In this document: piece by piece, positions 2,652 through 8,252 of the stretch | Position numbering within the stretch: the stretch's first letter is position 1 | How the letters are laid out: each line of letters starts with the position of its first letter | Assembly (NCBI RefSeq): GCF_036405315.1 | Contig: NZ_DASWXW010000016.1 | Coordinates: 5,134 to 69,133, forward strand | Direction: 5' to 3' | Length of the DNA: 64,000 nt | Source: Brevundimonas sp. | GTDB lineage: Bacteria > Pseudomonadota > Alphaproteobacteria > Caulobacterales > Caulobacteraceae | Position numbers and translations under genes: made by a program | The notes under the pieces: model-generated | Told to the model about the DNA's origin: nothing | Databases searched by the model: none | The model's input: the letters and a program-made list of their open reading frames with translations, nothing else

Positions 2652-3614
2652 TCAAACCGTCTCCGCCGCCTTCCAGTAGTCCAGCCGTCGGAAGAAGGGG
2701 GCCGGGTCTTTTGGCGTGACCAGGTTGGCGGGGTCGTGGAAGATGCGGTCGTGCAGGCGGGTCAGGGTGAAGCGCACCGCCGCCGCCGCGCCCAGTCCGG
2801 GAAGCGCGTCCGCCTCGGCCGGCGTCAGGGGACGCACGGACTCGTATCCCTTCTGGAAGGCGCGCAGGGCCACGGGCATGGGCCGGCCCTCGGCGTCGAA
2901 GCCCCAGGCGCTGAGCGCGATGGCCAGGTCATAGGCCAGGACGTCGGTGCAGCCGAAATAGAAGTCGATCACCCCGCCGACGTCGCTCTGGCCGTGCTCG
3001 TTCGTGGCGAACAGGACGTTGTCGGGGAAGTAGTCGGCGTGGATCGGTCCGCGCGGCAGGGCCGGATCGCTCCACGGCTCGGCCAGACGCGGCAGCAGGG
3101 CCTTGATCTGGTCCAGCATCTTGCGGTCGATCCCCTTGGCGGGCCCGTCACAGCGCGCAACCAGGGCCGCCCAGGCCTCGGGCCCGACGGGGTTTTTCCG
3201 CTCCATCGCGAAATCGGCGGCGTCGAGGTGCAGCAGGGCCAGCACCTGTCCCGCGCGATACTGCTCCTTGTCCGAGGGCTGACGCTTCCAGGCGCCCGGC
3301 GCCCAGTGCAGGATGGCGGCGGCGCGGTCGTTCAGACGGCCGATGATCTCGCCCTGACGGTCCGCCACCGGCGACGGCGTCGGGAAGCCGCGCGCCGCCA
3401 GATGCCGGGTCAGACCCAGGCAAAAGGGCAGAGACGCCGCGTCCGTCCGCCCCTCGAACAGGGTCAGGACATAGGCCCCCGACGTGGTCTCCAGCTTGTA
3501 GTTGGTGTTCTCGACCCCCTCGGCGATCGGCGTCAGCGCGACCAGATCGCCCAGGGGGTAACGCATGAGATAGTCGGCGGCCTGATCGGGCGTGACGGGC
3601 GTGAAGACAGCCAT
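2652..3614 (-). CDS. thrB: Homoserine kinase, type II (APH-like)
   Basis: MAVFTPV, GVENTNY, YVLTLFE, IHADYFPDNVLF, IDFYF, KDP motifs; ATG at 3614. Confidence 0.93.
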   Translation of the reverse strand: MAVFTPVTPDQAADYLMRYPLGDLVALTPIAEGVENTNYKLETTSGAYVLTLFEGRTDAASLPFCLGLTRHLAARGFPTPSPVADRQGEIIGRLNDRAAAILHWAPGAWKRQPSDKEQYRAGQVLALLHLDAADFAMERKNPVGPEAWAALVARCDGPAKGIDRKMLDQIKALLPRLAEPWSDPALPRGPIHADYFPDNVLFATNEHGQSDVGGVIDFYFGCTDVLAYDLAIALSAWGFDAEGRPMPVALRAFQKGYESVRPLTPAEADALPGLGAAAAVRFTLTRLHDRIFHDPANLVTPKDPAPFFRRLDYWKAAETV

Positions 3615-3616
3615 GT

Positions 3617-5359
3617 CTAGACCAGCTCCGCCGCCGCGCGACGGGCGCGCACCACGTCGGCCACGTCGGCCAGCACGCTTTCGGTCGTGGCCCAGCGCCC
3701 GGCTCCGCGCCCCTTGCACGTCCAGACGCGACCGTCCTGACCATAGACTTTCAAGGCGTTTCTCTCTCCGTTCAGCGACTGGAAGAGCGCGTCTTTCAGG
3801 TCGCCGTCAAGGCGGACCGAGGCGTCCAGATGGCCGCCCCTATCATGACAGGCGCCGATCTGGCGCACCTGGCGGTCGCCCAGCGGCGTTTCGGCCGACA
3901 GTTCGTCGCGCGGCAGGTCGGCGGGGGCGCGGCCGAAGGCCTCGAAGGACAGCAGCTTGACCTTGGCGGCGGCGTCGTGGCCCTCCAGATCCGAGGATGG
4001 GTCTTCCTCGGCGAAGCCCGCCACGCGGGCGTCGGACAGGGCGTCGGCAAAGGCCGCCCCCTCGCCCAGACGTTGCAGCATGAAGTTGACCGTGCCGTTC
4101 AGCACCGCCTCGAACCCGGCGACGGGACCGGCGGCGCGGGCGGCGCGCAAGGTCTCGATCATCGGCGCCCCGCCGCCGACCGAGGCCGACCAGGCGACGC
4201 GACAGCCGTTGGCGGCGGCCAGGGCCTGAAGCCCCGCCGGATCGCGGGCCACGGCCTGCTTGTTGGCGCTGACCACGTCGCAGCCGGCCTCCAGCGCGCG
4301 ACGGATCAGGGCGTGACCGGCCTCGCCTTCCGACAGGGCCTCCAGCAAGAGGTCCGGCTTCTTGGCCAGCAGGGCCTCGACGTCGTTGGTGAACAGGTCG
4401 GCCGGGGCCGCCACGTCGCGTTTCTTGCCCGGATTGCGGACCAGAACCCCCACCACCTCATAGCGTTTGTCCGGCAGCAGGCGGTTCAGCAGGCCGCCGC
4501 CGACCACGCCGCAACCGGCCAGGGCCACCCGCAACGGCGCGTTCGACTGCACCGGGCCGGGAGGCGCCCCGCGCTCGCCGACCACCGTGCCCTCGGCGCG
4601 GCCCAGGGCGGCCACCTCGATCTCGACCCCGCGCGCCTCGCCCAGGTCGATGGCGTCATGCTGGACCAGGGCCCCGCCCAGACGGCGCGCCGTCTCCCAA
4701 CTGGCGCGGCGATAGCGCAGCGGCGTCCCCGTCTCCGAGGCCGGATCACGGTCGTAGAGGCCGTCGACATCCTTCACCAGGCGCACCCGGTCCAGGCCCA
4801 GCTCGGCGGCCAGAACCACCGCCGTCAGGTCCGATCCGCCGCGCCCCAGCAGGGCCACGCGGCCGTTCGCGCGCACCCCGCCGAAGCCGGGAACCACCAC
4901 CACCTCATGCTCGGCCAGGGCGCCGTGCAGCCGCTCGCCCTTCAGGCTGACCGGCCGGGCGTGCTGGGCCGGACCCTCGACCACGATCCCCAGTTCCCGC
5001 ACCGACAGACCCACCGCGTCCAGACCCACCCGGTCGCAGGCGATGGCGACCAGGGCCGCCGCCTTCTCCTCGCCCAGCACCACATAGGCGGGCAGCAGTT
5101 CGTTCTCGTGATCCAGACCCAGGGCGCGGGCGTCGGCCAGCAGCCGGTCGGTGTGCCCCGACAGGGCTGAAACCACCGCCACCACCTTCCGCCCGGCGCG
5201 GACGTGACCGTAGATTTCCGAGGCCACGGCGGGGGCTTCGGCGGCGTTGCGCAGGACGGAGGAGCCGAACTTAAGCACCACGACTTCGGCGGCCACGGGG
5301 GCGTCGAGGGCCGCTTGCGGTTTCTGTTGATCGGCGACGAGAGCGAGAGAGGCGGGCAT
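3617..5359 (-). CDS. Aspartokinase-homoserine dehydrogenase fusion lacking ACT domains
   Basis: KFGSS and LLGRGGSDLTA, KDVDG (AK), followed directly by GCGVVGGG, SANK, LNGTVNF, GFAEEDPSSDLEG (HSD); 580 aa. Confidence 0.88.
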   Translation of the reverse strand: MPASLALVADQQKPQAALDAPVAAEVVVLKFGSSVLRNAAEAPAVASEIYGHVRAGRKVVAVVSALSGHTDRLLADARALGLDHENELLPAYVVLGEEKAAALVAIACDRVGLDAVGLSVRELGIVVEGPAQHARPVSLKGERLHGALAEHEVVVVPGFGGVRANGRVALLGRGGSDLTAVVLAAELGLDRVRLVKDVDGLYDRDPASETGTPLRYRRASWETARRLGGALVQHDAIDLGEARGVEIEVAALGRAEGTVVGERGAPPGPVQSNAPLRVALAGCGVVGGGLLNRLLPDKRYEVVGVLVRNPGKKRDVAAPADLFTNDVEALLAKKPDLLLEALSEGEAGHALIRRALEAGCDVVSANKQAVARDPAGLQALAAANGCRVAWSASVGGGAPMIETLRAARAAGPVAGFEAVLNGTVNFMLQRLGEGAAFADALSDARVAGFAEEDPSSDLEGHDAAAKVKLLSFEAFGRAPADLPRDELSAETPLGDRQVRQIGACHDRGGHLDASVRLDGDLKDALFQSLNGERNALKVYGQDGRVWTCKGRGAGRWATTESVLADVADVVRARRAAAELV

Positions 5360-5426
5360 CGGGGTGTTCCTGAAGGCGGGGTCTGACGGGGAGGTCGGGG
5401 AGAAGGTCGAGGTGGGCTCGGGCCAT

Positions 5427-5457
5427 AAAAAAACCCGCCCGGGGGTCCCGGGCGGGT
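5427..5457 (-). terminator. Attenuator terminator hairpin of thr leader
   Basis: Minus strand ACCCGCCCGGG-ACC-CCCGGGCGGGT followed by T run. Confidence 0.9.
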
Positions 5458-5494
5458 GATCGGTTTTCTGCGTTTTTCGCCTAGACGGCGCGCA

Positions 5495-5596
5495 TCATCC
5501 GGTCCCCGCCCGCGAGGGCATGGTGGTGGTACCGGTGGTCGTAATCATGGACGCGAAGAGACCCGTCGCCGAGGCGGCGATCGCGGTCATCTGCAT
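5495..5596 (-). CDS. Thr/Ile/Met-rich leader peptide MQMTAIAASATGLFASMITTTGTTTMPSRAGTG (alternative start 5548)
   Basis: Run ATG ATT ACG ACC ACC GGT ACC ACC ACC ATG upstream of terminator; antiterminator CGGGCGGG at 5505-5512. Confidence 0.85.
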   Translation of the reverse strand: MQMTAIAASATGLFASMITTTGTTTMPSRAGTG

Positions 5597-5805
5597 GCTG
5601 GCGAGGCGGTGAAGCACAGGCGGCGTCCGGTTGAAAATCTGACCTCAAGGTGTTCCAGGACCCCGCACCGCGTCAACCCCGAAAAGAACAAATTTTTCTC
5701 GAACCGACCAAATAGGCGCGATTTCACCGACGGATTACGCAGCCAGGCCCAAATGAGGTGAATTTTTCCGCTTGACCGGCGCTCTTCGCAACCGCAACGT
5801 AAGGT

Positions 5806-5929
5806 CACTCATCAAGACCGGCTGAGGGATTAGGCCCTTTGACGCCGGGGCAACCATCGGGTTCCGCCCGAAACGGTGCCAACTCCTGCGGGGTTTTCAG
5901 GCTTGCCTGAAAATCGCGAGAGATGGGTG
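5806..5929 (+). ncRNA. SAM-I (S-box) riboswitch
   Basis: CACTCATC/GATGGGTG P1; AUCAAGA, GAGGGA, GGCCC, GGCAACC, GGUGCCAA, CCUGC core motifs in canonical order; upstream of metX. Confidence 0.88.
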
Positions 5930-6009
5930 GAGCATCGACGAGGCGGCGCTCCACGGTCTGTCACTGCATGGGTTCCTTGGCGAGCCGTTTTGCTGAGTGA
6001 CCGAGACCC

Positions 6010-7077
6010 ATGACCCTGGCCCTGATCGAACCCGTCGCCCCCGCCGAAGAGCCCGCCTGTCGGCCTGCGTCTGCACGCCGTCCGTCCGAGCTGCTGTCGC
6101 GCGACGGAGCCCATGACGTCGTCGTCCCGATCCCAGACGGCTTCCCGCTCGATTTCGGCGGCGCCCTGAACCAGAAACAGATCGTGGGCCGCCTGCACGG
6201 CAAGGCCGGCGCCCCCCTGATCGTCGTGGCCGGCGGCATCTCGGCCGACCGCTACGTCCACCGCACCGAGACCAAGGGCCTGGGCTGGTGGTCGGGCGCC
6301 GTGGGCGTGCGCGCCCCCATCGACCTGACCCGGTTCCGCGTCCTGGCCTTTGATTTCGCCCCGGAGTTCGGCGAGGGCGTCAAAGACGCCAAGACCCCGC
6401 TGACCATCACCACCCAGGATCAGGCGCGGCTGCTGGCCCTGCTGCTGGATCACCTCGGCGTGGACAAGGTCGCGGCCTTCATCGGCTGCTCCTACGGCGG
6501 CATGATCGCCCTGGCCTTCGGCGAGATCTTCCCCGACTGGGCCGAGCAGCTGGTGGTGGTGTCCGCCGCCCACCGCCCTCACCCCCTGGCCACGGCCTGG
6601 CGCGGCATCCAGCGCCGCATCCTGCAGCTGGGCCTGGAAACCGGCCGCGTCGATCAGGCCGTGGGTCTGGCCCGCGAGCTGGCCATGACCACCTATCGCA
6701 CCCAGGAAGAGTTCGGCGAACGCTTCGATTCCGAGGCCCCCAGCCACGCAGGGCAAGCCTATCCCGTCTGCGACTATCTGACGGCGCGCGGCCGGGCCTA
6801 CCGCGACCGCACCACGCCGTCGCGCTGGCTGACCCTGTCGGACTCCATCGACCGCCACCGGGTCGAGCCCGAGGCCATCACCGCCCCCGTCACCCTGGTC
6901 GGCTTCACCACCGACCGCCTGTGCCCCATCGACGACATGAGGGAGCTGGCCGCGCGCCTGCCCAACCTCTGGCGCTTCGAACAACACCCCTCCCTCTACG
7001 GCCACGACGCCTTCTTGAAGGAAGACGCCCTGGTCGCCGACATCCTGACTTCCGTACTAAAGGACATCGACCAATGA
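6010..7077 (+). CDS. metX: Homoserine O-acyl(succinyl)transferase, alpha/beta hydrolase
   Basis: GGISA, GCSYGG nucleophile, ARELAMTTYR, YGHDAFLKE; precedes metB. Confidence 0.88.
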   Translation: MTLALIEPVAPAEEPACRPASARRPSELLSRDGAHDVVVPIPDGFPLDFGGALNQKQIVGRLHGKAGAPLIVVAGGISADRYVHRTETKGLGWWSGAVGVRAPIDLTRFRVLAFDFAPEFGEGVKDAKTPLTITTQDQARLLALLLDHLGVDKVAAFIGCSYGGMIALAFGEIFPDWAEQLVVVSAAHRPHPLATAWRGIQRRILQLGLETGRVDQAVGLARELAMTTYRTQEEFGERFDSEAPSHAGQAYPVCDYLTARGRAYRDRTTPSRWLTLSDSIDRHRVEPEAITAPVTLVGFTTDRLCPIDDMRELAARLPNLWRFEQHPSLYGHDAFLKEDALVADILTSVLKDIDQ

Positions 7078-8252
7078 GCCGCGCCCGTCCCGCCGACCCC
7101 CGCACCATCGCCGCCCGCTCGGGCGTCGATACGGATACGGCCCACGGCGCGGTCATGCCGCCGCTCTATCTGTCGTCCAACTACTCCTTCGCCGGCTTCG
7201 ACCAGAAGCGGAAATACGACTACTCGCGCTCGGGCAATCCGACCCGCGACGTCCTGGCCGAAACCCTGGCCGAGCTGGAAGGCGGCGCCGGCGCCGTCGT
7301 CACCGCCACCGGCATGGCCGCAGTCGATCTGCCGCTGTCCCTGCTGAACCCCGGCGAGCTGCTGATCGCGCCGCACGACTGTTACGGCGGCACCCATCGC
7401 CTGCTGTGCGCCCGCGCCAGGAAGGGGCACTTCCGCGTCGCCTTCGTCGATCAGAACAACGCAGAGGCCCTGGACGCGGCCCTGGCCGACGACGCGAAGC
7501 TGGTGCTGATCGAGACCCCGTCCAACCCCCTGCTGCGGGTCGTGGACGTGGCCGATGTCTGTCGTCGCGCCCATGCCGTCGGGGCCAAGGTGGTGTGCGA
7601 CAACACCTTCCTGTCGCCGGCTCTGCAACGCCCGCTGGAGCTGGGCGCCGACATCGTCGTCCACTCGACCACCAAATACATCAACGGCCACTCCGACGTG
7701 GTCGGCGGCGCCGTGATCGCGGCGGACCCGGCCGACCACGCCGAACTGGCCTGGTGGGCCAACTGCCTGGGCGTCACCGGATCTCCGTTCGACGCCTATC
7801 AGACCCTGCGGGGCTTACGCACCCTCTTCACCCGCATCGAACGCCAGCAGGCCACCGCCGGGCTGGTCGCCGCCGTCCTGGAACAGCACCCGGCGGTCAA
7901 GGCCGTCCACTATCCGGGCCTCACGTCCCACCCTGGCCACGCCCTGGCGACGCGCCAGCAGTCAGGACCGGGCGCCATGCTCAGCTTCGAGCTGAACGGC
8001 GGCACGGACGCCGTGCGCGCCCTGATCGAGGCCCTCGACATCTTCACCCTGGCCGAGTCCCTGGGCGGGGTGGAAAGCCTGATCGCCCACCCGGCCACCA
8101 TGACCCACGCCGCCATGACGCCTGAGGCTCGGGTGACGGCGGGCATCACCGACGGCCTGATCCGCCTGTCGGTCGGACTGGAGCATCAGGACGACATCCT
8201 GGCCGACCTGGTTCAGGCGCTGGACGCCCTGGTGCTGCAACAGGCCGCCTGA
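7074..8252 (+). CDS. metB: Cystathionine gamma-synthase / O-succinylhomoserine (thiol)-lyase
   Basis: YDYSRSGNPTR, ETPSNP, DNTF, HSTTKYINGHSDV, AESLGGVESL; ATGA overlap with metX. Confidence 0.92.
   Translation: MSRARPADPRTIAARSGVDTDTAHGAVMPPLYLSSNYSFAGFDQKRKYDYSRSGNPTRDVLAETLAELEGGAGAVVTATGMAAVDLPLSLLNPGELLIAPHDCYGGTHRLLCARARKGHFRVAFVDQNNAEALDAALADDAKLVLIETPSNPLLRVVDVADVCRRAHAVGAKVVCDNTFLSPALQRPLELGADIVVHSTTKYINGHSDVVGGAVIAADPADHAELAWWANCLGVTGSPFDAYQTLRGLRTLFTRIERQQATAGLVAAVLEQHPAVKAVHYPGLTSHPGHALATRQQSGPGAMLSFELNGGTDAVRALIEALDIFTLAESLGGVESLIAHPATMTHAAMTPEARVTAGITDGLIRLSVGLEHQDDILADLVQALDALVLQQAA

Follow-up and report, generated by a model that had tools for sequence, protein, structure and literature searches.

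Threonine-type attenuators and the Brevundimonas leader

The described system closest to the element reported here is thrL, the leader of the enterobacterial thr operon, and the multivalent control of this operon by threonine and isoleucine is established in Escherichia coli. A 2004 survey by Vitreschak and colleagues is said to have predicted attenuators upstream of thrA in Pasteurellales as well, with codons for threonine, isoleucine and methionine in their leaders; reportedly, codons for all three amino acids are present there because a single aspartokinase-homoserine dehydrogenase serves the three branches. Here we describe a leader of this type in Brevundimonas sp., a member of the alphaproteobacterial order Caulobacterales, in a 64,000-nt stretch of contig NZ_DASWXW010000016.1 (assembly GCF_036405315.1, positions 5,134 to 69,133), which is referred to below as the window and is numbered from its first letter. 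In a 320-nt gap between two divergent units, the minus strand of the window carries a real, conserved and lineage-specific attenuator, which represents an uncatalogued version of a textbook mechanism. On balance, we favour the view that it is a ribosome-mediated transcription attenuator of the operon encoding an aspartokinase-homoserine dehydrogenase fusion and a homoserine kinase (thrB), and that it senses Thr, also Ile and probably Met.

The resemblance of this locus to thrL concerns the leader, the RNA and the regulated genes. In both cases a short leader open reading frame (ORF), the translation of which is predicted in Brevundimonas, contains a run of Thr codons with Ile codons among them and has G-rich last codons, with the stop codon located just before or within the RNA segment denoted here as segment 2. 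In both transcripts the pairings 1:2, 2:3 and 3:4, which are predicted ones in Brevundimonas, are mutually exclusive and an intrinsic terminator is present, and both leaders lie directly upstream of a gene of aspartokinase-homoserine dehydrogenase followed by a gene of homoserine kinase. However, no sequence or structure homology to thrL is detectable, and the Brevundimonas leaders are of 38-58 codons, while thrL has 21, and include Met codons within the run. The Brevundimonas enzyme differs from its counterpart in the thr system by the lack of both ACT regulatory regions, its thrB is of the unrelated thrB_alt type, and thrC is not part of the operon. The thrA attenuators of Pasteurellales are, like the one described here, reportedly a purely computational prediction, and they are said to differ from it in being gammaproteobacterial and in preceding, with a short leader, the gene of a canonical ThrA of ~820 aa.

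Leader-peptide attenuation operates in Alphaproteobacteria, including Caulobacterales, as attenuators of this kind have been documented in Caulobacter and Sinorhizobium. The Caulobacter ilvL-ilvIH/ilvBN leader, which contains Ile and Val codons, is supported by RNA-seq and ribosome profiling (PMC4117421), and the Sinorhizobium trpL-trpE(G) attenuator is described in PMC6614838. Both concern other amino acids and other operons than the Brevundimonas leader, and a Thr-type attenuator or a homoserine dehydrogenase leader is not mentioned in either paper. No Thr attenuator of Brevundimonas or Caulobacterales was described in the full-text literature and individual papers that we searched.

The Rfam model of threonine leaders, RF00506 (Thr_leader), assigns this leader 15.6 bits (E = 5.3; gathering score 55) and has no match over the cut-off in the whole genome, while the E. 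coli control passed. At permissive thresholds, the Rfam search of region 5200-6200 returned only weak, terminator-driven matches and the neighbouring SAM-I riboswitch, and a search of Pfam-A and NCBIfam with three representative leader peptides gave no match at E up to 10. These results fit the suggestion of the initial annotation that Thr attenuators are not catalogued in alphaproteobacteria. The location of the leader, upstream of a thrA-type fusion and thrB, is that of the RF00506 leaders, and the locus has the features of classical attenuators of the trp, his, thr, leu, ilv and phe type: a predicted ORF with a cluster of end-product codons, located between the putative promoter and the first structural gene, an intrinsic terminator, a predicted antiterminator with one strand in common with the terminator, and a predicted 1:2 structure that includes control codons, with the stop codon placed so that a terminating ribosome would mask segment 2.

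Leader ORF and alternative RNA structures

The leader ORF, the M-I-T-T-T-G-T-T-T-M run and the 11-bp terminator with U7, all proposed in the initial annotation, proved to be present on the minus strand, at the positions given there. The terminator (5457..5433) has the sequence ACCCGCCCGGG-ACC-CCCGGGCGGGT, with 11 pairs, 10 of them G-C, and ends with seven T in all (5433..5427). Its 3' arm together with the U7 tract constitutes segment 4 (5427..5443, minus strand), while its 5' arm with the bases upstream constitutes segment 3 (5446..5463, minus strand), which in the predicted folds pairs with segment 2 or segment 4. The predicted energy of the terminator hairpin (3:4) is -24.9 kcal/mol. The alignment of 34 leaders by MAFFT and RNAalifold produced a poor consensus of 9 pairs, with the terminator misaligned by indels, and an alignment of 63 leaders derived from a covariance model (A3) was used instead as the basis of pairing statistics. 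The terminator is firmly established: in A3, 91% of its cells are paired, compensatory changes are seen at 8 of the 10 pairs, and none of 500 shuffles was as good.

The leader ORF, counted from an in-frame start at a conserved position, comprises 40 codons and a stop codon (5495..5617, minus strand) and has the sequence (V/M)LHRLASMQMTAIAASATGLFASMITTTGTTTMPSRAGTG; the frame 5617..5495 translates as VLHRLASMQMTAIAASATGLFASMITTTGTTTMPSRAGTG followed by the stop. Its start had been placed at ATG 5596, which gives 33 codons. This ATG is in frame with, and internal to, the ORF starting from GTG 5617, but it is the latter that occupies the conserved position, where GTG is found in 69, TTG in 10 and ATG in 8 of 87 Brevundimonas loci. 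The start is in frame with the Thr run throughout, though the distance between them varies by clade and the leaders range from 38 to 58 codons. Because the start keeps its frame across clades, and because ATG 5596 is missing from some close relatives, the comparison of these sequences indicates that GTG 5617 is probably the start codon and that the leader has 40 rather than 33 codons. The choice of start leaves the reading of the Thr run unchanged. Read in the other frames, the ACC repeat would give His or Pro codons; these readings were dropped, as a conserved start and stop exist only in the Thr frame. Upstream of the leader, a TTGACG motif (5671..5676, minus strand), recognised by its conservation, may serve as the -35-like box of a putative leader promoter. 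It precedes GTG 5617 by 59 nt, and in the 87 loci TTGAC is found 55-68 nt, mostly 58-61 nt, upstream of the in-frame start codon; a scan for E. coli-type promoters gave no match.

The octamer CGGGCGGG, which had been noticed inside the last leader codons at 5512..5505, is indeed an exact copy of the stretch 5441..5434 of the terminator 3' arm. By itself it is not rare (14 occurrences in the window against 16.8 expected), and the chance of its presence in a given 60-nt stretch of one strand is roughly 0.7%. It forms the core of segment 2, which consists of the G-rich last sense codons (5499..5515, minus strand) and in the predicted folds pairs with segment 1 or segment 3. Segment 1 (5518..5537, minus strand) covers the second block of Thr codons and AUG CCC. 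According to the minimum free energy fold of the full leader, it forms with segment 2 an anti-antiterminator (1:2; 5537-5518 with 5513-5496), accompanied by a spacer hairpin (5469..5494, minus strand) and the terminator. When the terminator 3' arm is omitted, the 2:3 structure is predicted instead, in which 5515-5499 pairs with 5463-5446, including the whole terminator 5' arm, and encloses the same spacer hairpin, the outer GCG:CGC pairs of which are found again in most clades. An antiterminator that excludes the terminator, as had been supposed from the octamer copy, is thus predicted; the octamer, however, is only a part of it, and the alternative 1:2 pairing exists in addition. The predicted energies are -20.2 kcal/mol for the isolated 1:2 hairpin and -38.9 kcal/mol for the 2:3 region with the enclosed spacer hairpin counted in. 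As modelled, the leader folds like a classical attenuator of four segments, with 1:2, 2:3 and 3:4 alternatives.

The 1:2 anti-antiterminator is moderately supported by the A3 alignment, where 83% of its cells are paired and its covariation, though modest (0.170), exceeds that of shuffles (0.112; 0 of 500 as high). The pair formed by the U of the AUG codon that takes part in the hairpin is variously U-G, C-G or U-A. In the case of the antiterminator, the fixed register gives 78% of paired cells, as compared with 40-50% when the strands are slid. Its extension helices are specific to clades: CGG:CCG in the clade of the window and GGUU:AACC in the majority of the rest; GGGU:ACCC, GUGA:UCAC or UGG:CCA are found in further clades. 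Because this register differs by clade, duplex energies and a permutation of partners were used for 2:3. For every one of the 49 representative leaders, the duplex has a predicted energy of -21 to -34 kcal/mol. The leaders' own partners are more stable together than permuted ones, and in a test that ignores phylogeny the observed value was not attained in any of 10,000 permutations. The antiterminator is therefore supported through conserved complementarity of the sequences, and not through covariation.

The conservation of the element is not limited to the species of the window. In the first sample of genomes, the fusion gene was found in 16 of 24 other Brevundimonas genomes, with the leader at every locus that had readable upstream sequence. 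Of 110 loci examined, 87 loci of Brevundimonas, out of about 90 that are orthologous, have in common the TTGAC box, the in-frame start, a leader of 38-58 codons that contains a T-rich run, a stop at the fixed position and a terminator. The scores of a covariance model derived from 34 leaders are 97-119 bits in Brevundimonas. The model also matches over its full length, with 40-58 bits, four genera of another family of the same order (f5), whose leaders lie directly upstream of the same fusion and encode, for instance, GSTLTTTMTITMTTSGMRGRVGVD, GGLGTTTMIITTTSWTRGAAGVA and ALGTTTTTTTTTSDTGGRAGAG, each followed by a stop codon. The same design, with the leader GGLGTTITMTTMTMPTGAGMD, precedes the fusion in a second genus of Caulobacteraceae (g21). 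The conservation across Caulobacterales, suggested earlier as a means of verification, has thus been found in Brevundimonas, in a second genus of Caulobacteraceae and in a second family, each time before the same fusion, and it extends to the leader ORF, its T/I/M-rich run, the constant distance of the stop from the G-rich segment before it, and the terminator. The fusion itself is confined to these Caulobacterales lineages among 401 sampled alphaproteobacterial genomes of 307 genera. Within the 2.7-Mb genome of the window, the site described here is the only one of 229 terminator-like sites that follows an ORF containing 6 or more Thr within 10 codons. Our results add to Alphaproteobacteria a well-supported, uncatalogued family of Thr-type attenuators, confined to Caulobacterales and tied to the ACT-less fusion. 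Annotation pipelines currently miss the leader ORF as well as the RNA element. The covariance model could seed an Rfam family. Since the mechanism is a textbook one, the finding may interest specialists rather than surprise them.

Several points weigh against the proposed control by a translating ribosome. The folding z-score of the whole leader is just -1.6; the covariation of the antiterminator in the fixed register is not above that of shuffles (38-39 of 500); the permutation test of 2:3 partners includes no correction for phylogeny; and in the window the start is ambiguous, with a weak Shine-Dalgarno sequence ahead of GTG 5617. The weak covariation of the antiterminator would also agree with a different explanation, in which the terminator hairpin, whether regulated or constitutive, is free of ribosome control, with a protein or a small RNA acting on the leader, or in which the product of the 40-codon ORF is a small protein, possibly of the membrane, and the ORF has a terminator of its own, the Thr run being a feature of this protein. 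The leader is twice the length of enterobacterial thr leaders, and its N-terminal half is hydrophobic and rich in Ala, Ser and Thr, as could be expected of such a protein. However, this half is poorly conserved as a protein, while the run, the G-rich last codons, the position of the stop and the terminator are conserved, and it is the complementarity with the terminator arm that fixes the last leader codons. Moreover, the leader peptide has no match to any family, the RNA has no match to riboswitches or protein-binding leader families, and on the minus strand there is no upstream gene for the hairpin to terminate. We consider this explanation very improbable. The possibility that the hairpin terminates a gene on the plus strand, or one located upstream on the minus strand, was dropped from consideration, as no such gene is present.

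From the features described above we infer leader translation, coupling of the ribosome with RNA polymerase and a response to each amino acid, according to the following scenario of ribosome-mediated attenuation. Transcription would start downstream of the conserved TTGACG box, and the 40-codon leader would be translated, probably from GTG 5617, as RNA polymerase advances. When charged tRNAs are plentiful, the ribosome would reach the UGA stop codon (5495..5497, minus strand). This codon lies 8 nt past the core of segment 2, and because its distance from this G-rich core is fixed in all loci, the terminating ribosome would be expected to cover segment 2. In the leader that is not translated, segment 2 would be held by segment 1. 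In either situation the 3:4 terminator would form, and transcription would end 67 nt ahead of the structural gene. With Thr-tRNA in short supply, the ribosome would stall in the run (5548-5522) and open the 1:2 structure; segment 2, once free, would capture segment 3 with the terminator 5' arm, and the polymerase would read through. The scarcity of Ile-tRNA should have the same effect, and that of Met-tRNA would probably have it as well.

Control codons and the question of methionine

The control codons of the window, AUG AUU ACG ACC ACC GGU ACC ACC ACC AUG (M-I-T-T-T-G-T-T-T-M; 5519..5548, minus strand, in the leader frame), include 6 Thr, 1 Ile and 2 Met within 10 codons. In 72 unique leaders of Brevundimonas, T, I, M and G account for 96-100% of residues at positions -16 to -9, counted from the stop, and the 15 codons preceding the last seven comprise 40% of Thr, 18.5% of Gly, 10.5% of Met and 10% of Ile codons. 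As the respective values for true-frame genome usage are 5.3%, 9.4%, 2.1% and 4.2%, the enrichment amounts to ~7.5-fold for Thr, ~5-fold for Met and ~2.4-fold for Ile. Among Ile codons of the runs, the rare ATT constitutes 56%, compared with 6.7% genome-wide, and is thus favoured 8-fold. When leaders of both families were clustered at 60% identity, and a control window of 14 codons was analysed with the codon before Pro excluded, 20 of the 24 clusters contained Met and 19 of 24 contained Ile (P = 5e-9 and 7e-4, respectively, in a binomial comparison with proteome frequencies). The sequence comparison indicates that the Ile and Met codons of the run are not mutational noise, because other single-step neighbours of ACC, namely the codons of Ala, Ser, Asn and Pro, are almost absent at positions -16 to -9.

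Provided that the attenuator is real, its sensing of Thr is highly likely. The sensing of Ile is also likely, and we rate it higher than the sensing of Met, which we regard as fairly probable. Met sensing is plausible because of the presence of Met in the control window of most leader clusters; it is a weaker case in the clade of the window itself, where the conserved Met codon is also structural. The two Met codons that flank the run had been taken as a match to the three homoserine-derived amino acids. Their recurrence among clusters and the fact that the fusion is the sole homoserine dehydrogenase speak for such a role, but one of them is partly structural and the other is variable in its own clade.

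The following observations weigh against Met as a third input. In the own cluster of the window, a Met within the upstream control window is found in just 44% of the leaders, and in its clade the upstream Met codon (5548-5546) is replaced by those of V, T or A in some leaders. The conserved AUG (5521-5519) lies 10 nt from the core of segment 2 and is paired in 1:2, and in other clades it gives way to ACG or GGC. The presence of Met codons does not cleanly track the need for Met sensing, since two genera break the pattern: g5 has the same sole enzyme and a pure Thr run, and g21 leaders are Met-rich despite a second copy of the fusion in a met operon. Furthermore, Gly codons, including the rare GGT, show that constraints at the RNA level also shape the run.

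These observations agree with an alternative in which the leader is the same ribosome-mediated attenuator but senses Thr alone or Thr and Ile, its Met codons not being sensors. They could be kept for reasons of RNA structure, as the U and G of AUG pair in 1:2 and A/U-rich codons break up (ACC)n and so prevent too strong pairing or slippage; or one of the Met codons could be the true start of a shorter leader, given that a G-M-T motif, a possible internal start, often begins the run. The pairing of the AUG before CCC with segment 2, and its replacement elsewhere by ACG (with C-G instead of U-G) or GGC, would be expected in this case, as would the loss of the upstream Met in the clade of the window and the Thr-only run of g5, where the fusion is the sole homoserine dehydrogenase. 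Gly codons are as frequent as those of Met and have no metabolic rationale, and the enrichment of GGT among them indicates a choice of codons that is partly driven by RNA. On the other hand, Met codons occur at shifting positions in the clusters of two families with different flanks, which speaks against a purely structural role, and Ala, Ser, Asn and Pro, which likewise are one step from ACC, are nearly absent at positions -16 to -9. In addition, the enzyme is required for Met synthesis and is controlled by a SAM riboswitch in sister species. In our view, an attenuator without Met sensing is rather unlikely, and we retain the reading in which Thr, Ile and probably Met are all sensed. The alphabet of T, I and M codons makes this leader a clean test case for multivalent attenuation that integrates all three homoserine-derived amino acids.

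Gly is the second commonest residue of the control runs. The rare GGT accounts for 30% of Gly codons in the runs and for 7.8% genome-wide, and GGUACC is found repeatedly in the runs of both families. The abundance of Gly codons may reflect the local pairing of GGU with ACC.

Operon downstream of the leader, neighbouring genes and related loci

The first gene of the operon (3617..5359, minus strand) encodes the aspartokinase-homoserine dehydrogenase fusion of 580 aa, identified by Pfam and NCBIfam. Its Pfam domains are AA_kinase (26-235), NAD_binding_3 (282-388) and Homoserine_dh (399-566), and a Pfam search for an ACT domain in it found none. NCBIfam models cover the catalytic parts only, i.e., positions 3-242 of 407 of the aspartate kinase model and 3-324 of 430 of the homoserine dehydrogenase model, all of these matches being below the cut-off. 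The fusion gene is the sole Homoserine_dh (PF00742) gene in this genome, as it is in three complete Brevundimonas genomes, and a canonical aspartokinase is encoded separately, elsewhere in the same genome. The second gene (2652..3614, minus strand) encodes a homoserine kinase of the thrB_alt type, with a protein-kinase fold (TIGR00938, 301 bits versus the cut-off of 256), and its ATG at 3614 is 2 nt past the TAG of the fusion gene. Because the fusion is the only protein with PF00742 and thrB_alt follows it so closely, the operon yields the only homoserine dehydrogenase of the cell, shared by the Thr, Ile and Met pathways, and the first Thr-specific enzyme.

Divergently from the leader, the plus strand of the window carries a SAM-I riboswitch (RF00162, 77 bits; 5806-5929), which is unusual for an alphaproteobacterium. 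Behind it are the genes of a metX-type homoserine O-succinyltransferase (PRK08775, 386 bits; 6010-7077, plus strand) and a metB-type cystathionine gamma-synthase (6921-8252, plus strand). The Brevundimonas species that have no leader carry hom in third place in a metX-metB-hom operon with a SAM-I riboswitch. Control of homoserine dehydrogenase that is linked to methionine thus recurs within Brevundimonas. One genus in which the same enzyme is under either an attenuator or a SAM-I riboswitch offers a natural experiment in regulatory replacement. It is tempting to speculate, as a tentative possibility, that the three-input leader sensing Thr, Ile and Met replaced the feedback control lost with both ACT domains of the sole fusion, and that in sister species this was achieved by the SAM-I riboswitch instead. 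If so, the long N-terminal half of the leader, conserved in position, would synchronise the ribosome and the polymerase; alternatively, the terminated RNA or the peptide might have a role of its own, like the products of the Sinorhizobium trp attenuator.

In one species that has neither the leader nor the full fusion (locus L169, G023:C1:748000-755000), the SAM-I riboswitch is located at 3939-3818 on the minus strand. Some of the hom genes of metX-metB-hom operons retain a short remnant of the kinase domain. Genomes of genus g21 (L115-L118 versus L137 and L120) contain two copies of the ACT-less fusion, one behind the Met-rich Thr leader, and the other, which has no leader, directly downstream of a metB-like gene. 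More distant fusions, of 37-46% identity, are encoded in genera g13 (L121, L122) and g28 (L123-L132) and lack a Thr leader in their long 5' regions; some of these copies adjoin a divergent SAM-I riboswitch. In another genus of Caulobacteraceae, g38 (L178, 401-529, plus strand; L179), a related terminator/antiterminator cassette, which scores 41 bits with model R1, is followed by two small ORFs, neither of which matches Pfam, and by a gene of a MatE transporter. The leader of this cassette ends with ARAMTIMMSIKTPKPGTGRRAP before the stop and is rich in Met, Ile, Thr and Lys.

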